Shown here: piece by piece, positions 15,368 through 27,390 of the stretch
How positions within the stretch are numbered: the first letter of the stretch is position 1
How the letters are laid out: every line of letters begins with the position of its first letter
From: Desulfurococcaceae archaeon
GTDB lineage: Archaea > Thermoproteota > Thermoprotei_A > Sulfolobales > Desulfurococcaceae
NCBI GenBank assembly: GCA_038824035.1
Contig: JAWBBW010000020.1
Location: 1-27,390, forward strand
Reading direction: 5' to 3'
DNA: 27,390 nucleotides
Made by a program: the position numbers and the translations under genes
Notes under the pieces: model-generated
What the model was told of the DNA's origin: nothing
Databases searched by the model: none
What the model saw: only the letters and a program-made list of their open reading frames with translations

Positions 15368-16128
15368 GCACCTTCAGGCAGGGATATCAAGGGTCTTTCA
15401 ATGCCTATTGGAAACACGTATTGAAGACTTGTCTGGAATTTATTGCCATATTTATCTTCTAATGTAACTACATATTGACGTCTTTTAAGTCCACTTTCAT
15501 GAATACTTAAAACTCTGCCTACCCTGCCAACATTTCTTCCATAAGATATTATGGCAATAACGCCCTCTTTAAGTGGTATGTATTCAATTATCCTTTTATC
15601 TCTCAATGATAGGATCACCGTTCCGAACGTCTCGTATATATCTTCCACAGGGTTTTTCGGATCATTTATATATACCAAGATATTCCTGCCATCATGTAGA
15701 TTTAGTTGTATGTGACCGCCCTTGACTGTTGTCTTGTTCTCGATCCTGCATGGTTTAATATAGCTTTCTTCTTCTGGTATTTTCACGAGTCCAAGTATCT
15801 TTGTCGGTACAGGGATCATTCTGTAAAACTCGTTTGTTTTCACAACTTGTATGATATCCATTATGCCTACTGGGAACTTGTAATCTCTCACAGTTCTACC
15901 ATCAATGGCGAAATGACCTTCAGAGATAAGTCTCCTGGCTTCTTTCCCTGTCTTAGCATACTTTAAAATATCGCGAACCAGTATTAGAAGCGGGATACAC
16001 CTATCTACAGGATGTGGACCGGGGGATGGTTTTACAGTCCATTTATACTCTTTTCTTAATATGGGCCAGAATTCAGGTGCAGCAAGGGCCTTTAAATGTC
16101 TACTTCCACCCATCTTGGCCATGCTCAT
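15361..16128 (-). CDS. rps4e: 30S ribosomal protein eS4
   Basis: [32 protein letters not shown]. Confidence 0.98.
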
Positions 16129-16553
16129 TTCACCTCTTTTGATCTCTCTTCAAGAGTTTTGCCTTCTTCACTCTCAGTTGGGATCTTTCCACGCCGTCTC
16201 TCTATTATCTTGAGCCTCAGTTTATCGCTGAGATCTAGCTTGGTTATCATGACCTTACTTGGATGTATAGGGTAATAAACAGGAGTTCCATCAGATTTCT
16301 TTACCTGCACCCCTTCTACGTATATCCTAACACGTTTTAAATTTATTTTTACAACTTTTCCCTCGTGACCCTTGAAACCGCCTCTCATTATCCTTACAAC
16401 ATCGCCTACACGAACAGGTAGTCTCTTGACATTATATTTCTCTCTCAATTCAGGCGATAATGGTGCGTTGAACAGTTTATGCCTTAAATGAAGCGGCATG
16501 GTATACAGCTGTTTTCTTTGTATACTTGGTTTAACAGAGCTTTTCAAGGGCAT
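16125..16553 (-). CDS. rpl24: 50S ribosomal protein uL24
   Basis: [31 protein letters not shown]. Confidence 0.97.
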
Positions 16554-16567
16554 CTCAACACCTCATT

Positions 16568-16996
16568 TCACACTATTATTGAAGCTAAATTCGCGATCTG
16601 TGGCCATCTCTCGGCAGCTTCTTTTGCCACCGGACCTCTTATCTCTGTCCCCTTAGGTGTTCCTTCAGGGGTCAGTATAACAACAGCGTTGTCTTCGAAT
16701 GATACCCAGGTACCATCAGGTCTTTTATATGGTCTTTTTTGTCTAATTATTATTGCCTTGAATATTTTCTTCCTCATTTCCGGTATCCCCTTTTTCACGC
16801 TGACAACTACGAGGTCCCCTATACCAGCTGGTGGAACTCTTCTTAATTTACCATGATATCCTGGTACGCCTATTATCACCACCTCTTTGGCACCACTATT
16901 ATCGGCTACCTTGACTTTTGACATCACTTGTAGACCAGTGTTTATTCTCCTCCTGGAATAAGCTGGCTTACCCGCTACAGCTCGTTTCGCACCCAT
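16568..16996 (-). CDS. rpl14: 50S ribosomal protein uL14
   Basis: [27 protein letters not shown]. Confidence 0.98.
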
Positions 16997-16998
16997 TC

Positions 16999-17346
16999 CT
17001 ACCCACCTTTTCTCCTCAACACGCCTAACACAATGAAAGAAACTGTCTTAGATAATGGACGAGTTTCCCCAATTAAAACCTCATCGCCCTCGTTCACATC
17101 TATACACGTGGGTAGGCGTGCGTGAATATGTCTTCTCCGTCTTTCATACCTCATGTATTTTCTAACATAGTGTAGATATTCATGTCTCACAACGACAGTT
17201 TTCTGCATTTTCCTCTTAACTACAACACCTCTAAGTAAAATACCACGCACTTTCAAATGCCCATGCCACGGACACAAGGGGTCATTACATGTCTTTTCGG
17301 GCGGGTTTAACCCAGGTATACCGATGTTATTTATCCTTTGGCTCAT
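16999..17346 (-). CDS. rps17: 30S ribosomal protein uS17
   Basis: [30 protein letters not shown]. Confidence 0.98.
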
Positions 17347-17358
17347 GCATATTCACCT

Positions 17359-17643
17359 TTATATCATTTTCAATCGTTCCCATGGTCTACCAACGATGTC
17401 TAACCCTTTAACAACGACCATATCATTTTTATCGGGTATTTTAAATCCAAAAACACCATTTGCTTTAAAGACCCTTATTCTCTTGCCATTTCTTAATTCT
17501 ATTAAAAGCGTTTTCAACGTCTCGTCTATTACCAAGCCTTCTAGGTTAACCAATTTAGGATCACTATATTGTAGGATCCTGACTTCGAGACCGATGATCT
17601 CGTGTCGTAGGATATTTTTACTGGTGACCCTCAACGTGAACAC
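17359..17643 (-). CDS. rnp1: RNase P protein component 1 (Rpp29)
   Basis: NILRHEIIGL, G.VIDET, G..IVGRPWERLK; conserved position between uL29 and uS17. Confidence 0.93.
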   Translation of the reverse strand: MFTLRVTSKNILRHEIIGLEVRILQYSDPKLVNLEGLVIDETLKTLLIELRNGKRIRVFKANGVFGFKIPDKNDMVVVKGLDIVGRPWERLKMI

Positions 17644-17836
17644 CCTTATGTTTCTCCTCGTTCATGATGGTTAATATCCTCGCTATATCTCTCCTTATGT
17701 TACGTATCTTACTGGTGTCTTTTAACAAACCCATTTTCGCTTGTAATCTCAGCTTCACGAGTTCTAGTCTTAATTCATTTAACCTCCTTAACCGCTCTTC
17801 CATATTCATTTTCCTTATTTCACTCGGCTTCATCAC
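17618..17836 (-). CDS. rpl29: 50S ribosomal protein uL29
   Basis: EIRKM...LNELRLEL...IRNIRRDIARILT. Confidence 0.96.
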   Translation of the reverse strand: MMKPSEIRKMNMEERLRRLNELRLELVKLRLQAKMGLLKDTSKIRNIRRDIARILTIMNEEKHKGVHVEGHQ

Positions 17837-18480
17837 TATGACACCTCTTGCTTGATCTTGTCGAGCTCTTCGGGGGATAATTGTCTATATTCAATATGAT
17901 CTGGAAGTTTAATCCCAGGCTTAACTATGACAACCTCAATACCATATATTCCCGGTTTTAACAGTGCCCGCACCACAGCACGATCTATTATATAATCCAC
18001 TGGATCGCCTGACTTATACACCTTGCCTGCTCTTAGTTTTTCATATGTAGCTCTTTCTCCTCTAAGTTTACCACTAACTATTATCTCCGCGCCTATAGCT
18101 CCAGCATCCATTATTCTCCTTAACATGAACATCACTACGCGTCTAAATGGAATCCCTTTTTCCAGTGCTCTGACGATCCTGAATGCTACGACCCGCGCGT
18201 TTAGATCGGGATCTACTACAGGAGATACAGTTATATTCACGTTTTCAAGCCCAAATCTAGTTTGCATAATTGATGCGAGCTTCTTTATTATAGCCCCTCC
18301 TCTCCCTATTAATCTTCCAGGGTATTCCGCGTATATGACCACCCTATGTCCCATGGGCGTGCGATATATTTCAACATCAGTATATCCGGCGTCTTTGAAG
18401 TAATTGGCCAAGAATTCATCGATCATAAGTTTTTTCAATCCATATGAGATAAAATATTGCTTGATCCTAGATCCAACCAT
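17836..18480 (-). CDS. rps3: 30S ribosomal protein uS3
   Basis: PGRLIGRGG KH motif, GAEIIVSGKLRGERA. Confidence 0.98.
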   Translation of the reverse strand: MVGSRIKQYFISYGLKKLMIDEFLANYFKDAGYTDVEIYRTPMGHRVVIYAEYPGRLIGRGGAIIKKLASIMQTRFGLENVNITVSPVVDPDLNARVVAFRIVRALEKGIPFRRVVMFMLRRIMDAGAIGAEIIVSGKLRGERATYEKLRAGKVYKSGDPVDYIIDRAVVRALLKPGIYGIEVVIVKPGIKLPDHIEYRQLSPEELDKIKQEVS

Positions 18481-18954
18481 TTATCCCACCTCTTTGACGA
18501 TAATCTCTACGTGGGTCATTCTTCTGTATTTGGGAGTTGCACGTCCAAAAGCCCTCGGCATATATCTCTTAAGAGTGATACCTTTGTGAGCAGCGATATG
18601 TATTATGACTAATTTGTTCTTATCCAATCCCTTAAACTCTGCATTTGCTAATACGTTTTTCAACAACTCCAATGTATACTTAGCTCCTTTTACAGGATAT
18701 CTCCCTATGGGCCATTTGAACCTATCACTTAATCCTTTTTTATGGCTTAGCTTGCCATGATATCTCCTAAATGGAATAGGTTGTTTAAGCTTAATTACAT
18801 CTTCTAGAAACCTAATAGCATCGAGCAATTTCATGCCTTTAAGCGTATATGCTATTTCGCGCATGTACTTAATAGACACTGGAATATCGAATCTAACTGC
18901 TTTAGCGATTTTTGATTCATCATCTAGTTTTACGGAATATTTCCACACAGGCAT
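18481..18954 (-). CDS. rpl22: 50S ribosomal protein uL22
   Basis: GRYPVK, NAEFKGLD, PRAFGRATP; start at ATG 18954 (track ORF extends to 18966). Confidence 0.97.
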   Translation of the reverse strand: MPVWKYSVKLDDESKIAKAVRFDIPVSIKYMREIAYTLKGMKLLDAIRFLEDVIKLKQPIPFRRYHGKLSHKKGLSDRFKWPIGRYPVKGAKYTLELLKNVLANAEFKGLDKNKLVIIHIAAHKGITLKRYMPRAFGRATPKYRRMTHVEIIVKEVG

Positions 18955-18967
18955 CTCCAACACCACC

Positions 18968-19414
18968 TTATTTCATGGCGATGAACCTACTGCTCTTAGT
19001 AGCTTTCAATCCAGGTTCTCCGTGAACAACCCTCTTCGTGGATGGGCTAAACTCTCCGAGATAATGACCAATCATTTCAGGGGAGATCTTAACTGGAATG
19101 AATTCCTTGCCATTATATATCGCTATAGTGAGGCCAACCATCTCGGGTAATACTATCATGTCCCTTACATGTGTCTTTATAACGGCTTTCTTAGCTAATT
19201 CTGGGTTCCTAATTATCCTTCTTATTTTAGCGAGTAATTTGATCTGTTGTTTTGTGAATCCTCGTGTTAAACTTCGTCTCTGTCTTGCTGGCAGTAACCT
19301 GACAAAATCATCCATTGACATATTTAGTAATTCTTCGAGATTCCTACCTCTGTATTTAAATTTCCTCCACTCCGGTGGCATGTCACGGAGATGTGGCGGT
19401 AAATTAGTGGACAC
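18968..19414 (-). CDS. rps19: 30S ribosomal protein uS19
   Basis: [32 protein letters not shown]; start at GTG 19414 after SD GGGGGT. Confidence 0.97.
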
Positions 19415-19459
19415 GAATACCCCCTGAGATAAGCATTTTCCCCTCAACTGGGTCTTTAT

Positions 19460-21391
19460 TTAAAGATAAATACTCCTTTTTAAAATATTTGGTATATCCT
19501 TAGGATTATCCACCATTGTTACTTTGCAACCAGCTTCCACGAATTTTCTATAAGCCTCTCTATCGTGTTCTCTATGAGTGATCACGAAGACCTTATATCC
19601 CCTGTTCACAGCGTCCTTGGCTATTTCCCATGGTTTCTGGTCTTGTACCGTTTGCTGTAGATCGCTGAATAATACTAGAACTCTGCTACCAGTGATCTTG
19701 GCAATTCTCAGCGCCTCTCTTAGTGCTAGGGAGATATTTGTATATCCTTTAAATCCTTCTGAGAACAAGTTTTCAAGATATTTAGCCAGTAATTTTTGCT
19801 GGAAGATCTTTTTTGGAAACATGAAGACCTTTACATTCTCGGAAAACAGGATTACCGAAGATACTAATTTAACAATTGTTGCCAACGATAATATAGACCA
19901 TAATGAGAACTTGGCCATACTGCCACTGGTATCCACCACGGCTACTACGAGATATTTCTTGTCATAGTTTTTAAAAACCAGTTTGTTGTTTAGCCTCACA
20001 TTGTTATATATGGTCTTCCTGATGTCTAGCCTACCTCTCGCAATGTCCTTCTTCTTATTGAATATCAACGTGCCTTTGAATCCACGCATGTTTTGGAGAA
20101 TTCTCAGCCCAAGAGCTATTGCACGCTTAAGGACATCCGGGTCTATGTATCCTTTTTGATAATAGTTCTCCATCAGCCTCTGTGAAATGATCTCTATCGA
20201 GTCAAACGGGATCACCCTGCCCATAAAAGCTATGAAGGCCTTTTTATCACCCTTGATCATACTGGTATAAATCGGTTTAAACTCGTAGTCAAGTTCATCT
20301 GGGCTAACTCTCTCGAGGAAATACATTGAGTAATTGAGATAAGAGGTGTTTTTCGTTAATAAGTAATCAATATAATGAATGAGGGATTTGCCCAATAACG
20401 CTTTCGCTTTAATATCATCACTATATTTCTCTGGATTGGTGATTCCCGAAAGCGAAATCGGGCTCAGTAATTTAAGTACTTCTTCGCCTCTCTTAGTCCT
20501 CGAGATCGAATTAACAACTTTGAGACGCTCTCTCAGAGGAAGCTGTTCTATTTTATTAGCTAATTTCTTTGGCTCGGCGTTTTCTATAAATGAAGATACT
20601 TCGTTGTGATCTAGGAATGATATTAGATGCGGGTTCTCTACAAGGTCCTGTGGATCAAGTATTTTGTCTAATAATTTCTCAATTTTCCTAGCCTCATTAA
20701 CGCTGGGTTTCCAACCCGTTCTGATCCTATATTTGAACTCATCAATCAACCTATTATCTATGGTGACATTACGTCCCTGATACCTGTTAGCCAATTCAAG
20801 AAGCCCCTCCACATCGAGTTTCCTAAATACTTCCCGGCTAAGGATTTTTGGCCATAAATTGCTCGGGATCTCATTGAGGTACTTAGCGATATCAGAAAAA
20901 CCGATCTTAACTTCCGTGCCCATAATTGATCGAAGCGAATCCAGCTCAACACGTAATGTGCCGTTGCTATGTTTTTTCAAGATACCTGCCTTTCTACAAA
21001 AAATATACCCCAATAAATCCCTTTGAGATGGATGTTTACCTAATACATGTTGAACCGTTAGTTTTCTAGACTTAGATATCCTGTTGAAGAAATCGCGATC
21101 TAGGGATAATTCTATAGTTAACGCGGTATCATGGATCCTGGATTCGCTTTTCCAACCCAGTGATTGTGGTAATAAATTCACTATCTCGTTGAATAACGAT
21201 GGATCATGAGTAATGGATTTAAGTGTTATATATAATTTTGAGAACATTATCAAGTTATCAATTGTTACTCCTTCATAATGTTTTGCCATATCCATGACAT
21301 GTTCAATGATGTTCTCAATATATTTATTTATTTCCTTTCTGATCTCCTCTACATCACTTGAACAATTCCTTGACAAGTTCTTCATCCTCAA
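19460..21391 (-). CDS. Large protein with C-terminal VWA/MIDAS domain (CoxE-like)
   Basis: RLDIRKTI..N motif, DTSGSM (DxSxS), GYTNIS.AL and VLFSD in the last ~200 aa; long helical-looking N-terminus. Overlaps the ATPase stop; start uncertain (TTG 21376 plausible). Confidence 0.88.
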   Translation of the reverse strand: MRMKNLSRNCSSDVEEIRKEINKYIENIIEHVMDMAKHYEGVTIDNLIMFSKLYITLKSITHDPSLFNEIVNLLPQSLGWKSESRIHDTALTIELSLDRDFFNRISKSRKLTVQHVLGKHPSQRDLLGYIFCRKAGILKKHSNGTLRVELDSLRSIMGTEVKIGFSDIAKYLNEIPSNLWPKILSREVFRKLDVEGLLELANRYQGRNVTIDNRLIDEFKYRIRTGWKPSVNEARKIEKLLDKILDPQDLVENPHLISFLDHNEVSSFIENAEPKKLANKIEQLPLRERLKVVNSISRTKRGEEVLKLLSPISLSGITNPEKYSDDIKAKALLGKSLIHYIDYLLTKNTSYLNYSMYFLERVSPDELDYEFKPIYTSMIKGDKKAFIAFMGRVIPFDSIEIISQRLMENYYQKGYIDPDVLKRAIALGLRILQNMRGFKGTLIFNKKKDIARGRLDIRKTIYNNVRLNNKLVFKNYDKKYLVVAVVDTSGSMAKFSLWSILSLATIVKLVSSVILFSENVKVFMFPKKIFQQKLLAKYLENLFSEGFKGYTNISLALREALRIAKITGSRVLVLFSDLQQTVQDQKPWEIAKDAVNRGYKVFVITHREHDREAYRKFVEAGCKVTMVDNPKDIPNILKRSIYL

Positions 21392-22289
21392 TGTTCTTGA
21401 TCAGTACACTTAAACCAGCTGTTTTCAAATCGTCTTCATCCGCCTTGCTCTTATTTTTGATCTCAGCTAGCAATGCTGTCATAGTGAACCACATAACGCT
21501 GTCAGCTATCCCCGGTTTATAGGTAGCCTTTTCCCTTAATTTCCTCATTGTTTCGAGGCCCTTCATCACCAATTCATCACTAAGCTTGTTGAATAGTGAA
21601 CCCAGCCTTAACCTTAAGATCTCATATTCCTCCTGAATACTTGGATACTTAAATTCTATTCTAATGACCCTACGTAGAAATGCATCGCTTAAATCCCGTT
21701 GTGCGATATCATATGGATTACTCGTGAAAATTACCTGGAAGCCGATACCCTCTTGTCGATATACCTTTCGCAACTCGGGTATTATTATTCTACGCTTATC
21801 TATAATATCCAATAACATGTTTTGAAATTCCTCACTACTTCTCCGTATTTCGTCTATTAAAACCCCTGTCTCCATGATCAGGCTTGCCAATAACGGCCTC
21901 GGTATAAAACTTTCCTCGTTAAAGCCCTTTGCAAGTGCCATTGCTGGGTGAAAATCGCCTATTACACGGTATTCATCGTAGTTCTCGCTACAGGGTAGAA
22001 TAAATGGTGATTTACCACTCCATAGAAACAATATTGCTTCCCCAATCTCTGTTTTACCAGTTCCCGGGGGTCCTTCAAATAACACTGGCCTATTGTTGAG
22101 AAACGCGGAGACAGATAAATATATTATATGTGGCTTCACTATTAATTTAAACTCATCTCTCAAAATCCTTAACATCTCTTCGGGATCTCTTACCGGTTTA
22201 CGAGTTTTAATCACTGATCCATATATTTCATATACCTTTTTAACTACAGGATCGTCCACATCTATGGACATGTTAAGACCCATAAGCAT
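21354..22289 (-). CDS. MoxR family AAA+ ATPase (CoxD-like)
   Basis: Walker A EGPPGTGKT, Walker B VLIDEI, FQNMLL, sensor-1 TSNP, LSDAFLRR and KPGIA motifs. Confidence 0.93.
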   Translation of the reverse strand: MLMGLNMSIDVDDPVVKKVYEIYGSVIKTRKPVRDPEEMLRILRDEFKLIVKPHIIYLSVSAFLNNRPVLFEGPPGTGKTEIGEAILFLWSGKSPFILPCSENYDEYRVIGDFHPAMALAKGFNEESFIPRPLLASLIMETGVLIDEIRRSSEEFQNMLLDIIDKRRIIIPELRKVYRQEGIGFQVIFTSNPYDIAQRDLSDAFLRRVIRIEFKYPSIQEEYEILRLRLGSLFNKLSDELVMKGLETMRKLREKATYKPGIADSVMWFTMTALLAEIKNKSKADEDDLKTAGLSVLIKNIEDEELVKELFK

Positions 22290-22318
22290 GTACTATATGT
22301 TTACATGAGTTAAGGAGT

Positions 22319-22325
22319 TATTTAA
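22319..22325 (-). promoter_or_regulatory. Putative TATA box for moxR
   Basis: Minus strand TTAAATA about 30 nt upstream of ATG 22289, compatible with a leaderless or short-leader transcript. Confidence 0.4.
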
Positions 22326-22416
22326 TCCAGTGATGTTGAAGTCTTTCCAGATATCGTGTTCTCTAGGTCGAGGGCTGGGTTATTGCTGGTTTTAAAGAAA
22401 CGAGTTTCGAATGGGC

Positions 22417-23136
22417 CTATCCTTTTCTCCTGCCAGTTCTTTTCGCTGCTATATGCCCAACTTTTCTACCAGGTGGTGTGTTCCTGGCTACTGTTGTAGG
22501 TCTGCCTACATGTTGATGACTACCACCACCATGAGGATGTGACACGGGATTCATGGCAACGCCTCTGACTCTTGGCCACCAATGGCTTTTAGCACGCCAT
22601 TTATAGTAAGACGCTCCTGCTTTTAACAATGGTTTTTCCAGTCTACCGCCTCCCGCTATTACGCCTATCATTGCTCTGGCGTCGTTTGAAACCTCTATTA
22701 CTTTTCCACTTGGCAATTGTATTTTGGTTTTCTCGCCTGTTTTACCCACAACTATGGCATATGTACCACTAGCCCTAGCATAGCGGCCTCCATCGCCCGG
22801 CGTTTTCTCTACATTGGCTATTTGAGTACCCTCTGGTATTTTGCCCACGGGTACTATGTTGCCGTTCTTTATATCTGCAACTGGGCCTATTTGAATCACT
22901 TGTCCAACATACATGCCCTCTACTGCTGGTGTGTAAAAGATCACGCCATTTTCCAGCCTTATCTCCGCTAGAGGCACCCATCTGCCTGGATCGTGGATGA
23001 TGTCTAGAACCACTCCATTGTAGGTTTTATCCAAATCCAATATTGGATATCTAGCTGGCATTATGTGCAAGTGGTCAGGGGTTCTAAAATTCGGTGAACC
23101 CTTTCCACGTCTTTGAACAATAATTCTCTTACCCAT
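22417..23136 (-). CDS. rpl2: 50S ribosomal protein uL2
   Basis: MGKRIIVQRRGKG, HDPGR, WPRVRGVAMNPVSHPHGGG. Confidence 0.98.
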   Translation of the reverse strand: MGKRIIVQRRGKGSPNFRTPDHLHIMPARYPILDLDKTYNGVVLDIIHDPGRWVPLAEIRLENGVIFYTPAVEGMYVGQVIQIGPVADIKNGNIVPVGKIPEGTQIANVEKTPGDGGRYARASGTYAIVVGKTGEKTKIQLPSGKVIEVSNDARAMIGVIAGGGRLEKPLLKAGASYYKWRAKSHWWPRVRGVAMNPVSHPHGGGSHQHVGRPTTVARNTPPGRKVGHIAAKRTGRRKG

Positions 23137-23145
23137 TCAGACCAC

Positions 23146-23421
23146 CTACATCAGGCCCAGCTTAGTCGCGATCTCGCTTGCCTTATATCCCGGCGTAAGC
23201 CTCACGTATGCTTTTTTCTCCCCTCTAGGCGTTATAAGCGTCCTCACGTTATCTACTTTAACGTCGAAAATGGCCTCAACAGCCCTCTTGATATCGTGTT
23301 TAGTTGCATTAATATCCACTATGAAAACTATTGTATTATGTTTATCTATTAATGAAAGGGCCTTTTCACTCTGAACGGGCCTTATTATCACCTTATAAAT
23401 ACGGGATTCTTCCCCGCTCAT
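23146..23421 (-). CDS. rpl23: 50S ribosomal protein uL23
   Basis: [24 protein letters not shown]. Confidence 0.97.
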
Positions 23422-24242
23422 AGTAATAACACCTCATATTTTCTCGATATGTTCTCGAGCGCTGATTGTGAAATGACCATGAGTCTGCCCGGTTCTCCTC
23501 CAGGAGCTAGATGTAGAACACTCAGATTTTCCGGTGTTGCTATGTCTACTCCAGGCAGGTTTCTCACAGCTCTTGATAGTGGTTTATCATAACTACTTAG
23601 TACAAACAATATGCTCCTCGGCTCAACATACTTCCTACCTCTCATCTTGCCTTTGCCAGCTCTAATCCTAGTCTTTTCATAACTCCTCTCAATATCACTC
23701 CACAACCCTATTTTCTGTAAATATAGCTTTGCTTCATTTGTTTTCTGCACTTTATCCTCCACTTCATTTAAAACCACTACCGGTAATTTACTAATACTGA
23801 ACACGTGTCCCCTTTTCTTCACCAATTCTACTCTAGATGTGGCCGCAAGTGCTGATATTATTGCCAATATTCTCTCTTTCTTATTCACATCTTCATGTAT
23901 CTTCCTATCTGGTCTCGGCGGGAAGGCTAGATGCCCCTTTCTAGTACTTACAACAAATCGTGCAGTGCCATTTGGTAATCTAGGAACCCTTGCTAAGCCA
24001 TAGCCAACTCCCCAGTACTTAGCCGTTGTCCTCTTACCGGCCATTGGATCCCTGCCCTTTGGTTGAATCATCGCAGTGAATGCGGAGAGAAACGCTCTTC
24101 TTATGACATCTTTCCTTATCGGGACATAGAACAACTGTGGTAGCTCTATTTCGCCTATGATGTTTCCATCGATACCGTACAGGTAGCTTGTGAGTTTTGA
24201 TTCCACCTTGAAATCTCTTGGTGAGATTAGAGTTAACGTCAT
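23418..24242 (-). CDS. rpl4: 50S ribosomal protein uL4
   Basis: [43 protein letters not shown]. Confidence 0.98.
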
Positions 24243-24250
24243 GTTCCCAC

Positions 24251-25444
24251 CTAAGCTCCTTGCTTACTTTCAAGACTTAGGTAGACAAAACGGGGTGGTT
24301 GGAGAGGTAACCATTCTAGGCTAGGCCTAATTGGATGTCTAAGTATAACTAATCGCTTAGATGGGCCAAACACCGATCCCTTCAACATTATGTATGGCCC
24401 ATATATTAATCCATAACGCAGGAATCCTCCCTTAATAGTTACTTCTAGACCATTTAAACCAATTCTTAGAATCCTCTTGTTGTAATCGGTTCTCCTGTGG
24501 AACCCCATCTGACCTGGCTGAGGTGTCTCACTCATTGAATACGTAAAAGCTGGGCTTCGCGCCCCTATCTTTCTACTACCCTTGCGATGTTTATGCCATC
24601 TGGGTAATTCCTTTACGCCAAATCTCTTGATTACTCCTTGAAAGCCTTTTCCCTTAGTAACACCTATTAAATCTACTAATTGGCCTTCGATAAAGACGTC
24701 CGATGCCTTAACATATGTCCCTAATAACTGTATTGCATATTTAACTCTCTCATCGAGTTTGCCGCCTCCTATCTTTATCTCGAGGATTTCTGGTTTTTTC
24801 TTACCAAAACCAGCTAGTACAGGTATTGTCGACACTATGACCCTTATATCCGCGATATCACCGCTTAGGACTTCTTTTAACTCATTCTCATCGCTTTCCG
24901 CTATGAACTTATATCCATACTCACCACTTGGATCCGGCTTTACGAGTCCATGGTTCAGCTTTCGCAATCCATGGAGATATTTCCTAACAACTTCACGTGG
25001 TGTTATGTTGAATAACGGGTTTGATGAGTATAGATCTTCGTATGCTTTGATCACAGCGTCCACAGGGTTTTTCCATACTTCTCCACGGGTTTTCAAATAA
25101 CCATCAAAAGTAATCTCATAGGCTCTAATACCGAGCACACATACTGGCGGAGCATCCATGATAGTTATTGGTGTGAACACCTCTTTGCCTGTAAAGGGCG
25201 TATTAGGTCGATCTTCTATTATTAGGCCATGCGTCATACCAGCCTTATAGGCTGGAAATGCCAATAGAACCGGCCGTGGAGCTATGCCCTTAGCTATTGC
25301 CTCATCGCCGTATTTATCAATTAATAGCTCAAACCACGTTTTCAAAGGCCATGTCTTTATACGTGGCGTTAGATCCTTGGCTCGTTTCCTAGGTCTTACT
25401 CCAAGGCTTCCATGTCTTGGCGCCTCTAGTTTTCTATGACCCAT
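24251..25444 (-). CDS. rpl3: 50S ribosomal protein uL3 (with insertions)
   Basis: [44 protein letters not shown]. Confidence 0.98.
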
Positions 25445-25580
25445 CCCTTAAACACCCTTACGCTAGTATTAAATACTGGGTTTTAAAACACATTTACCTT
25501 TACCAATATCTGTTCTCACGGTATACCAGGTTGTAGTTTTTAAATCAACAAATAGCCTTTTAAATAATCATGCCCCCGGA

Positions 25581-26417
25581 TCATATGATGTTCAACAACA
25601 TGTTTAAAACCCCTAACGTTATCAATAGCGCTTCCTCAGTCCTAATCGAAACGACCTTTTGCCCTGGTATTGTATTCCATATAAAGTCTACATACTTGTC
25701 AAGATCGAATCCTTCGCCATTAGCTATTTCAAATAGATCATGGCGCGGACTTCCAAATAAAATGTTGATCTCAGCGCTTGGATATCCCCTTATCTTATCG
25801 ATATCCTTGATACTCGGCAATCTACCTTTCCTATCAGTGGCTATCATTAAACCTCTGTTCTTATGTTCCAATATCTCGTCTATTAGTTTTACTGCGAATT
25901 TCAACCGAGGACCTGTATACACATCGTTGCTATTGATACACTCGACTAGTTTTTTATTCACATCCTTCACCACAACCAGGACCAACCCTTCTTCACAATC
26001 AGCATTGACAGCTCTATAGAAATTCTTCCCATCTATATTGATCTTGAAATAACCATCTCTGCTCTTAACCGAGTAGCCAAGTCTATATTCGCCGGTTCTC
26101 GGCACCGGTTCCTTATCATAAATCTCTAGCCTTATTGGTGGCCACAGTCCTACATGTCTCAGTAACGGGTTTATTGGTACAAGAACTTTTCTAAGATATG
26201 GAGGAGTGAAGAAATATTTCCAATGCATCTCTATTATTTCCTTATCTCTGGCAAATTTCTCAATGCTTGTCGAAAATTCCTTATAGAATACAACCTCTTT
26301 GACTCCGAAAATAGAGCACCATCTAGCCACTTGATGTATCCTGTTAGATTTCAATAGAAGAGAGTGTTCTACTTCGAGAATACTAGTTGGTAAGATAACT
26401 CTTAAATAATAATTCAT
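25581..26417 (-). CDS. SPOUT-family putative RNA methyltransferase (DUF171/SPOUT1-like)
   Basis: AR...IFGV.E, TPPYLRK, G..PP, ILFGSP and N.IPGQ.V.SIRTEEA motifs; usual position upstream of uL3. Confidence 0.9.
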   Translation of the reverse strand: MNYYLRVILPTSILEVEHSLLLKSNRIHQVARWCSIFGVKEVVFYKEFSTSIEKFARDKEIIEMHWKYFFTPPYLRKVLVPINPLLRHVGLWPPIRLEIYDKEPVPRTGEYRLGYSVKSRDGYFKINIDGKNFYRAVNADCEEGLVLVVVKDVNKKLVECINSNDVYTGPRLKFAVKLIDEILEHKNRGLMIATDRKGRLPSIKDIDKIRGYPSAEINILFGSPRHDLFEIANGEGFDLDKYVDFIWNTIPGQKVVSIRTEEALLITLGVLNMLLNII

Positions 26418-26440
26418 GTTTTTAGCTGTACCCTTATGGC

Positions 26441-26518
26441 TTATTTTTTCTCCTCTGATTTGCCTTTTTTGCTTCTCTCCTTGATCATGAATATTGTTGT
26501 CCGTTGCCTGCCCCCCAT
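26441..26518 (-). CDS. Putative 25-aa small ORF MGGRQRTTIFMIKERSKKGKSEEKK, or frameshifted N-terminus of the SPOUT gene
   Basis: ATG 26518 is preceded by SD GGGTGGT at normal spacing; TAA at 26443-26441. Confidence 0.35.
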   Translation of the reverse strand: MGGRQRTTIFMIKERSKKGKSEEKK

Positions 26519-26638: not shown

Positions 26639-27390
26639 TTAAACACGAGATCTATCGTTGTATTTCAATGGAGTGTTTATTTCAAATACCAATGGCGTTT
26701 TATTTAGTAGATTCAAAAACACCGCCTCACCAATTGTCAGTTTACTTAGCACCGAGACCATTTGATTAGGTAGACCTAGGATTTTCTTGGCCTTTAAAAG
26801 ATATTCCTCGTTTTTAGACCCAAAAAACACGATGTTATAGATGTTTTCGAGGATTTCTTGTGGAATGTCATCTGGGTTTTGCGTGGATATTATCACTCCC
26901 AGTTTTCTGCTACGGCCTTCTTTAACCATTTCCACAATGGCCCTCATTTTAATTACCCTCCACGCATCATCGATTATGAATAACGTGTTGATAGGGTCTT
27001 TTTCGGCTAGGAATATGTGTTTAGCCATATTCACAAGGAGCGATGCATACGAGTTCTGGAACACTGTGCCATATCCGCTTAAATCTATTAATACACCATT
27101 TCTCAAACTATTGATCAATTTATCGTAATCGGGTTTGCGATTCAATAACTCAATAAATGGTATTAGGATCGAGGCCTCATGTGCTTTAGAGATGGCTGCG
27201 AGATCACCCTCTCTGTAGACAATATCAAATGCCTCTGAGAGCTTTTCGATGGAAATACCGGAGATGAAGGAAAGAGATTCCAGCACTATTAGTTTCCACT
27301 CTACATTATTGAAAAAAGGTGGTTTTTCAAGAATATTTATAGGCATCTCCACTGGATTTACAACATTGATCACGCCTTTACATATATATG
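26639..27390 (-). CDS. HerA/FtsK/VirB4-superfamily ATPase, C-terminal part (5'-partial)
   Basis: LFIIDDAWR (Walker B), KEGRSRKLGVIISTQ.P.DI, N...FG and L..GEA motifs. The frame is open to the window edge, and Walker A is not in the window. Confidence 0.85.
   Translation of the reverse strand, partial: YICKGVINVVNPVEMPINILEKPPFFNNVEWKLIVLESLSFISGISIEKLSEAFDIVYREGDLAAISKAHEASILIPFIELLNRKPDYDKLINSLRNGVLIDLSGYGTVFQNSYASLLVNMAKHIFLAEKDPINTLFIIDDAWRVIKMRAIVEMVKEGRSRKLGVIISTQNPDDIPQEILENIYNIVFFGSKNEEYLLKAKKILGLPNQMVSVLSKLTIGEAVFLNLLNKTPLVFEINTPLKYNDRSRV

Follow-up and report, generated by a model that had tools for sequence, protein, structure and literature searches.

A MoxR-type gene pair between the uL2 and uS19 genes

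In a 27,390-nt stretch of DNA from a Desulfurococcaceae archaeon (assembly GCA_038824035.1, contig JAWBBW010000020.1; hereafter the window), we found two co-oriented genes on the minus strand between the ribosomal protein genes uL2 (22417-23136; Ribosomal_L2_C, 152.7 bits) and uS19 (18968-19447; Ribosomal_S19, 111 bits). The upstream gene (21354-22289) encodes a MoxR-class, CoxD-like ATPase with a Pfam AAA_5 domain, 311 amino acids (aa) long when counted from the ATG at 22289, and the downstream gene (19460-21391) encodes a 643-aa protein, here called the adaptor, with a VWA_CoxE domain that bears a metal ion-dependent adhesion site (MIDAS). The adaptor open reading frame (ORF) overlaps the 3' end of the ATPase gene by 38 nt with its TTG start, or by 32 nt with an ATG at 21385. 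This layout agrees with the gene order and coordinates given in a first-pass annotation, a model's reading of the letters alone. The surrounding superoperon, which is also encoded on the minus strand, runs SPOUT methyltransferase, uL3, uL4, uL23, uL2, the pair, uS19, uL22, uS3, uL29, RNase P p29, uS17, uL14, uL24, eS4 and uL5. We consider the pair very probably to be a working remodeller of the MoxR-VWA type. All elements of the two genes described below lie on the minus strand.

The ATPase scored 64.1 bits against AAA_5 (cut-off 22). Its Walker A motif (GPPGTGKT, 22050-22073) is invariant in 73 of 73 orthologues, and in the Walker B motif (LIDEI; D-E at 21849-21854) the aspartate is invariant and the glutamate conserved in at least 90% of the same set. 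Thus, a domain above its cut-off, intact Walker motifs and an adjacent VWA/MIDAS gene together place the protein in the MoxR class. The translation probably starts at the ATG at 22271 (MSIDVDD; 305 aa), as the orthologues align from residue 6-13 of the longer form. The alignment of the 73 orthologues holds 84 invariant columns with a mean column identity of 68%, and across related loci the identity of the ATPase (53-78%) is comparable to that of the adjoining ribosomal proteins (66-81% for uL2 and uS19). The ATPase is acidic, with a median isoelectric point (pI) of 5.8 in 68 orthologues. In three genomes (G042, G051 and G110), a single in-frame stop codon (TGA or TAA) falls inside the ATPase match, and these copies may be pseudogenes or carry sequencing errors.

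In the adaptor, the VWA_CoxE match (46.5 bits, cut-off 26.4) covers residues 450-613, which places the domain within the last 200 residues, and the same family was matched by 71 of 72 adaptor orthologues. The MIDAS motif DTSGS (19919-19933) supplies D487, S489 and S491, and these three ligands are invariant in all 72 orthologues, as are the further ligands T551 and D577. The first ~440 aa matched no Pfam family in any of the 72 orthologues (E <= 0.01), which bears out the earlier remark that the N-terminus is long and uncharacterised. An AlphaFold2 model built from the 72 orthologues reached a mean pLDDT of 87.6, or 90.8 when the N-terminal part was modelled alone. In the model, the chain begins with an N-terminal helical module (aa 1 to ~110, 21062-21391; helical over aa 1-77), which is common to shorter CoxE-like VWA proteins, and continues through a putative winged-helix-like element (aa 92-165, 20897-21118) into a basic, all-helical alpha-solenoid with pLDDT > 85 (aa 165-435, 20087-20899). 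A low-confidence linker (aa 438-446) then leads to a basic neck with conserved R454, R458, R466 and K478 (aa 447-478, 19958-20053) and to the VWA domain, which was delimited by structure comparison (aa 479-643, 19463-19957). In the VIA-align comparison, the VWA domain superimposed on many VWA domains with Z 17 and a root-mean-square deviation (rmsd) of 2.5-2.8 Å over ~160 residues.

The winged-helix fold of aa 92-165 is suggested by the order of the secondary-structure elements in the models. Y129, L132, R133, G136, K140 and G144 are conserved in this element, and R133, K140 and position 142 of the presumed wing are conserved basic; aa 85-170 of three orthologues matched none of the Pfam helix-turn-helix families even at E <= 10. 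The N-terminal 440 aa as a whole gave nothing at Z >= 7 in the fold search. Its matches were generic ARM, HEAT and TPR helical repeats, with no Ro60 among the first 50, and the best of them (Z 6.8-6.9) rested on helical hairpins of ~57-66 residues, which is under the noise level of the tool for helical repeats. We therefore rejected a known fold for this part. The structure prediction and fold search proposed at the outset have thus yielded a confident model, albeit no fold assignment for the N-terminal part.

The N-terminal region was turned into a profile and compared with 1.84 billion representative proteins. Among the 115 proteins matched, all but three carried VWA_CoxE in the Pfam scan, and most kept the 610-715-aa architecture. 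Fifteen more distant matches that we scanned (406-577 aa) proved to be VWA_CoxE proteins as well, and those of 406-459 aa matched only positions ~15-120 of the profile, i.e., its first ~100 positions. As the matches mostly have the same architecture and the short CoxE-like proteins share only these ~100 positions, the adaptor is a CoxE-like protein that has gained an insert of ~330 aa (the winged-helix-like element plus the solenoid) peculiar to this orthologous group. Among the remaining weak matches are a MoxR ATPase interrupted by an intein (P0117, 747 aa; bpMoxR, AAA_5 and AAA_lid_8), which is matched on its lid region, an Ig/CARD protein, and a protein of 308 aa with no Pfam family assigned. 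Only chance-level matches were obtained when the adaptor was compared with a phage collection.

Rates of evolution differ greatly between the two proteins. In the adaptor, columns are on average 28% identical, and 24% in its N-terminal 440 aa (72 orthologues), so that a fast-evolving adaptor is coupled to a slowly evolving ATPase. All 72 adaptor orthologues are strongly basic, with a pI of 9.0-10.7 in the N-terminal part and 9.6-11.5 in the VWA part, and the median net charges of the two parts are +22 and +16, respectively. The adaptor of the window, at +29, comes second when the 317 ORFs of 400 aa or more in the same genome are ranked by net charge. Its charge resembles that of its ribosomal neighbours, uS19 and uL2 being strongly basic too.

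Comparison with known MoxR-VWA and MIDAS systems

Subfamilies of the MoxR ATPases were reportedly defined by Snider and Houry in 2006. We could reject MoxR proper (the MRP subfamily), as AAA_3 reached 20.3 bits under a cut-off of 27, the CGN subfamily (CbbQ/GvpN/NorQ), as NCBIfam GvpN reached 46.6 under 266.8, and MadB, as the NCBIfam model reached 87.7 under 475; the adaptor matched nothing in NCBIfam. Among plasmid-borne proteins, the best matches of the ATPase were ~30% identical MoxR ATPases, one of them annotated as carbon monoxide (CO) dehydrogenase subunit D. The VWA_CoxE domain and this ~30% identity to CoxD-like ATPases point to the CoxD/CoxE-like branch as the candidate subfamily. 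CoxD/CoxE-type ATPases correspond to the APE2220 subfamily of PMC3893208. What the pair shares with CoxD/CoxE is an AAA_5 ATPase of one module, encoded ahead of a VWA_CoxE protein whose MIDAS is complete and whose first ~100 aa are common to short CoxE-like proteins. The present pair is set apart by the ~330-aa basic insert, which appears only in this orthologous group, by the conserved placement beside uS19 and uL2 and by the missing hydroxylase client described next.

The classic client of CoxD/CoxE is a molybdenum hydroxylase. The marker MoCoBD_1 was not found in this genome, which is 99.67% complete, and occurred in 6 of 15 pair-bearing as against 17 of 26 pair-less relatives. As the marker does not co-occur with the pair, we rejected such a client, in line with the first-pass statement that no CO-dehydrogenase-like client is at hand.

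The highest-scoring match of the ATPase among PDB sequences was midasin. Nevertheless, its 62 bits are the sum over repeated modules that contribute ~13-14 bits each, and the best single-module matches, NorQ and CbbQ, reached 29.3 and 26.3 bits, respectively. Since each midasin module scores ~13 bits against 29.3 for NorQ, we see no special likeness to midasin, which speaks against the midasin likeness that the first-pass annotation proposed for the pair. As for NorQ/NorD, the VWA domain of NorD (9qhe_G) was among the fold matches of the adaptor. In the cryo-electron microscopy study of NorQ/NorD, a finger of the VWA domain enters the pore of the ring and force is applied to a linker (PMC13036017). 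The pair differs from NorQ/NorD and CbbQ/CbbO in that it has neither a nitric oxide reductase nor a Rubisco context and in that the N-terminal region of its adaptor is unrelated.

MoxR proteins are given as the closest prokaryotic relatives of the dynein and midasin modules (PMC3495828, PMC3791482), and in the former the vWA protein is described as a metal-dependent substrate-binding co-chaperone and midasin is thought to have derived from MoxR-vWA systems (PMC3495828). The present pair shares with midasin the AAA clade, a MIDAS domain with all metal ligands and a genomic link to ribosomal genes, and the MIDAS domains of Rea1 and MDN1 were found among the fold matches of the adaptor (E 2.3e-4 to 6.3e-4). 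Midasin, by contrast, consists of six fused modules, a tail and a fused MIDAS domain, whereas the pair has one 311-aa module and carries its MIDAS on a separate 643-aa protein. In addition, we know of no substrates with ubiquitin-like domains in these archaea.

When the whole adaptor model was searched with Foldseek, Ro60/TROVE chains filled the first 11 ranks (E 3.4e-6 to 1.6e-4, 512-624 alignment columns), and matches confined to the VWA domain (integrin I domains, MDN1/Rea1 MIDAS and NorD) ranked lower (E 2e-4 to 7e-4). TROVE proteins were also the only natural proteins in the PDB matched by the adaptor sequence profile, with an E-value of 0.0034 for the VWA part only. The adaptor resembles Ro60/TROVE (Rsr) proteins in that a helical-repeat region precedes a MIDAS VWA domain; it differs in being paired with an AAA ATPase and in having a solenoid that, taken alone, is not recognisably Ro60-like.

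Conservation of the linkage to uS19 and inheritance of the pair

With the ATPase as query, 77 loci were fetched from related genomes. Both ORFs, with a first start codon, were identifiable in 61 related loci. In all of these but one, the ATPase stop codon is abutted or overlapped by the adaptor ORF (608-713 aa if complete); the exception (L112) has a gap of 1191 nt followed by a 249-aa ORF. The order uL4-uL23-uL2-AAA-VWA-uS19-uL22 was seen in 23 of the 77 loci and AAA-VWA-uS19-uL22 without an upstream uL2 in another 14. In three arrangements the pair is found beside uS19: it stands between uL2 and uS19, follows some other gene and precedes uS19, or faces a uS19-uL2 block, the last being among the other arrangements of the remaining loci. 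Loci that lack the upstream uL2 have, next to the pair, a class I aminoacyl-tRNA synthetase together with a Cas4-like nuclease, or GatA-GatB, or ATP synthase A/B/D together with DUF61, or a peptide ATP-binding cassette (ABC) transporter. In the Acidilobaceae-type loci (L095, L103 and L085), the gene for the Cas4-like PD-(D/E)XK nuclease lies between the synthetase gene and the pair. At L069 (288-2597), in one lineage, the ATP synthase A subunit encoded upstream of the pair contains an intein with a LAGLIDADG endonuclease domain.

The linkage to uS19 was counted over the 65 loci holding the 3' end of the adaptor gene, of which 61 were informative and four had too short a flank. uS19 lies downstream on the same strand in 39 loci (the tblastn match begins 16-202 nt away, or 791 nt in one locus) and on the opposite strand, in convergent orientation and 6-1693 nt away, in 11. 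Thus, the synteny survey called for at the outset found uS19 beside the adaptor gene in 50 of the 61 informative loci, in several families and in three arrangements, and the linkage to uS19/uL2 is conserved through rearrangement.

The pair is likewise not limited to the present genome, the restriction that the first-pass annotation had named as a ground for giving up its proposal. The adaptor was found in 15 of 41 related genomes; seven of the family's eight other genera are represented, but none of the 16 other species of the same genus. At the level of the class, an ATPase orthologue was found in 115 of 301 genomes at E <= 1e-96 with 51-76% identity, as part of a single-copy pair. Nothing else appeared up to 1e-30 except for one fragment at a contig end (1.6e-48), whose genome has a full copy besides. 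In the phylum scan (301 genomes), matches outside the class were only 30-35% identical and represent paralogues. The holders include Desulfurococcaceae, Thermogladius, Staphylothermus, Pyrodictium, Hyperthermus, Aeropyrum and Acidilobaceae, and from these sequence data the pair is ancient, single-copy and vertically inherited. One genome (G029) carries two identical copies in opposite orientation on one contig (C2:17891-20864 and C2:51009-53982), which reflects either a large inverted duplication or an assembly artefact.

In the 16 congeners, the ATPase search returned weak paralogues only (E >= 5e-8), and uL2 directly precedes uS19 in 16 of 16 (L024-L039). A FastTree phylogeny of uL23, uL2, uS19 and uL22 (657 columns, 37 taxa, midpoint root, no support values printed), from which we excluded one congener locus and all loci with less than 80% coverage for any of the four proteins, placed the genome of the window as sister to 15 pair-less congeners, with a pair-bearing Desulfurococcus record next. 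A single loss within the genus is the simplest reading, since the tree makes this genome the sister of the congeners that lack the pair. The latter form a natural loss series for comparisons of phenotypes or profiles.

A possible mechanism and client

If the pair works as its domain make-up suggests, the ATPase would assemble into a hexameric, ATP-driven AAA_5 ring of the CoxD-like kind and, together with its private adaptor, would make up a dedicated remodelling machine. By analogy with NorQ/NorD, the adaptor may dock on the ring through its basic neck and VWA domain, the neck being a candidate for the contact with the AAA ring. The MIDAS metal site would then grip an acidic side chain of the client, and ATP hydrolysis would pull or twist the adaptor and thereby remodel the client, while the basic solenoid and the winged helix may hold RNA. 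Such a client would most likely be a nucleic-acid-containing particle, i.e., a ribosomal subunit, a ribosome precursor or some other complex of rRNA and proteins.

A ribosomal particle or a ribosomal ribonucleoprotein (rRNP) is our best single guess at the client, albeit a tentative one that we hold at somewhat less than even confidence. We favour it because (i) the linkage to uS19/uL2 has persisted through rearrangements, (ii) the alternative neighbours include translation-related genes, (iii) the ATPase is as conserved as ribosomal proteins are and (iv) the adaptor is strongly charged, its basicity being the main protein-level argument for a client that contains nucleic acid. The exclusion of the classic CoxD/CoxE client and the leading place of the RNA-binding Ro60/TROVE proteins in the whole-adaptor fold search count on the same side. 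The fuller proposal is an ATP-driven remodeller of ribosomes or rRNPs in which the MoxR-type ring is free-standing and the MIDAS adaptor is basic and binds RNA, a prokaryotic working counterpart of midasin/Rea1; it seems rather unlikely to us.

Operon boundary, expression and loss

Against a ribosomal client weigh the position of the pair at what seems to be an operon boundary, its repeated loss, those loci that lie at a distance from ribosomal genes, and the fact that no transcript contig covers the pair. To begin with the boundary, uL2 and the ATPase gene are separated by anything from 59 to 1585 nt in related loci, and opposite-strand ORFs lie in the gap in some genera, a TnpB-like one in one locus and ORFs of 123-126 aa in others. 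Promoter-like sequences are found ahead of both the pair and uS19. The region ahead of the ATPase gene (22283-22326, minus strand), for which promoter function is proposed from sequence, combines the AT-rich ATTAAATAA (22318-22326) with ATGCTTA (22283-22289), and that ahead of uS19 (19430-19464, minus strand) combines TTTAAATA (19457-19464) with ATGCTTA (19430-19436). The TTTAAATA box overlaps the adaptor stop codon, and ATGCTTA follows ~26 nt downstream, then a Shine-Dalgarno-like GGGGGT and then the GTG of uS19. An RTGCTTW leader motif precedes uS19 in 13 of the 16 pair-less congeners as well, and in 14 of 48 co-linear pair-bearing loci. The variable gap, the opposite-strand ORFs, the promoter-like boxes and the uS19 leader in pair-less congeners lead us to regard the uL2/uS19 junction as probably the boundary of two transcription units, at which the pair forms a unit of its own. 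This weakens the claim that the pair was inserted inside a ribosomal protein operon, and trapping at such a boundary could explain much of the synteny. In a Desulfurococcus locus (L044:2438-3652, minus strand), a 405-aa ORF with a Cas12f1-like TNB domain (TnpB-like, IS200/605-type) stands between uL2 and the ATPase gene.

In this lineage, the RTGCTTA motif itself is probably widespread as a transcript-start or leader element. In the genome scan, nine genes showed a TATA-like box, RTGCTTA, a GGTG-like Shine-Dalgarno sequence and a start codon in succession, among them uS12, eL15, uS19, the ATPase gene and topoisomerase VI B; the pattern was also found ahead of an ABC permease gene. As only uS19, uS12 and eL15 of the nine are ribosomal, we rejected the motif as the mark of a ribosomal regulon. 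The window is not enriched in it either (6 matches against 7.8 expected).

Expression was assessed from one public metatranscriptome, which is available as assembled contigs only and holds near-identical transcripts of the ribosomal proteins, e.g., a 219-nt uS19 contig with zero mismatch. The contigs cover 15 of 30 bins of the region 16000-26500 and none of the eight bins over the pair; four ribosomal protein bins are likewise empty, and assembled contigs are unable to prove absence. The data hint at a much lower expression of the pair than of its ribosomal neighbours, which weakens the case for the coupled expression expected from the first-pass annotation, the flanking genes having been seen and the pair not. 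Three further metatranscriptome runs, of raw reads, gave zero reads and therefore constitute no test of expression.

Besides the boundary and the expression data, 11 of the 61 informative loci have no uS19 within at least 1500 nt of flank, their neighbours being ATP synthase genes, DUF61, a major facilitator superfamily transporter or a peptide ABC transporter. The pair is also dispensable, as the searches recovered it neither from any of the 16 congeners nor from entire families of the class (0 of 44, 0 of 46, 0 of 23 and 0 of 12 genomes). Relatedness among the loci also means that the synteny counts should not be taken as independent events. The comparison with Ro60 adds further points to this side. 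The superposition is poor (TM-scores 0.18-0.24, rmsd 15-20 Å), and Pfam TROVE matched nothing in the 72 orthologues (E <= 0.01) or in the genome, the Deinococcus radiodurans and Bacteroides thetaiotaomicron controls being positive.

Of the remaining features of the window, the listed uS19 ORF appears over-extended at its 5' end, with the GTG at 19414 as the probable start, and a bZIP_Maf match on this ORF is most likely spurious. The gene for the SPOUT RNA methyltransferase (Methyltrn_RNA_3, 25581-26417) precedes uL3 here and likewise in rearranged Pyrodictiaceae-type loci (L072, L090, L097 and L113). A partial ORF at the window edge (26639-27373) shows a likeness to the C-terminal region of DNA-translocating ATPases of the HerA/CedB/CedD type, its scores being weak and well under the cut-offs. 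The Rfam and tRNA scans gave nothing over the region of the pair, and their sole match in the window was a tRNA-Ser at 2752-2842.

Alternative explanations

The strongest alternative is that the pair is a hitch-hiker, i.e., a CoxD/CoxE-like assembly chaperone whose non-ribosomal client, for instance a metalloenzyme, is encoded elsewhere. An ancestral pair would have landed in the spacer between two operons and stayed there because that neighbourhood seldom rearranges. We regard this as unlikely on balance, yet as a possibility to be taken seriously. Much of what was described above would follow naturally from it: promoter-like elements of its own and a variable upstream gap, a uL2/uS19 boundary with its own uS19 leader in the pair-less congeners, a clean loss in 16 of 16 congeners, the 11 of 61 loci away from ribosomal genes, and zero transcript contigs over the pair where the flanking ribosomal protein genes are covered. 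Furthermore, no named relatives are closer than the CoxD-like MoxR ATPases, and ordinary short CoxE-like proteins share the N-terminal ~100 aa of the adaptor. Nevertheless, the classic molybdenum hydroxylase client is neither in the genome nor co-occurring with the pair, and an adaptor of such basicity (second of 317 large ORFs) with a family-restricted 330-aa insert is unexpected for a metal-insertion helper. The linkage to uS19 has also survived where the superoperon is broken or inverted, and the ATPase is unusually conserved.

Alternatively, the winged-helix-like element and the basic surface may bind DNA, in which case the pair would remodel a chromatin or transcription complex, possibly controlling the neighbouring ribosomal operons. 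We consider this quite unlikely. The helix/strand order, the conserved basic wing, the strong positive charge and the position beside promoter-like sequences are all compatible with it, and VWA domains of TFIIH p44 were among the fold matches; the VWA matches are, however, generic, and no helix-turn-helix family was recovered even at the relaxed threshold. We know of no MoxR-VWA pair that acts on DNA, and the combination of a conserved ATPase with a fast-evolving DNA-binding part would be unexpected for a regulator.

A role in RNA surveillance, with the adaptor as a distant functional analogue of Ro60/Rsr that captures misfolded rRNA or non-coding RNA and the ATPase releasing it or handing it on, strikes us as very unlikely. 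The first 11 Foldseek ranks, the TROVE proteins as sole natural matches of the sequence profile (in the VWA part) and the basic adaptor would suit it. As the TM-scores are low, the N-terminal part by itself reaches no match of Z 7 and lists no Ro60 among its 50 best, and Pfam TROVE is negative, we judge from sequence and model that the likeness to Ro60 lies in architecture and not in membership, and TROVE membership was rejected for want of any sequence match. Ro60 proteins, moreover, are not known to work with an AAA partner. Finally, an anti-virus or conflict system is barely plausible: MoxR-vWA cores are described in such systems (PMC7159879) and the adaptor does evolve fast, but the pair has no conserved third gene for an effector next to it, inheritance is vertical and single-copy with a very slowly evolving ATPase, and PADLOC returned chance-level matches only (best E 0.0046), on which ground a defence system was rejected.

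Taken together, a ribosomal particle or rRNP thus stays our preferred client, and the proposal of the first-pass annotation, a split midasin-like system acting on ribosomes, holds in part. The pair is widespread, linked to uS19, not accompanied by a molybdenum hydroxylase and equipped with a basic adaptor, in keeping with that proposal; the midasin likeness, the insertion within an operon and the co-expression were weakened or found no support, and the pair is dispensable.

Implications

In the literature searched, we came across no archaeal ribosomal gene cluster described as holding a MoxR-VWA pair and no prokaryotic MoxR-vWA pair tied to ribosomes. To our knowledge, energy-consuming factors are almost unknown in archaeal ribosome assembly, and the pair, if it acts on ribosomes, would be a rare candidate for one. 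The system is compact, consisting of two genes, and is present in cultured hyperthermophiles (Thermogladius isolates), which makes it experimentally tractable. If it is genuinely a counterpart of midasin, ribosomes would have been a target of AAA-MIDAS machines earlier than, or independently of, the six-module fusion protein of eukaryotes. If the client is not the ribosome, a group-restricted basic adaptor without a known fold match would still represent a new branch of the CoxE-like adaptors.

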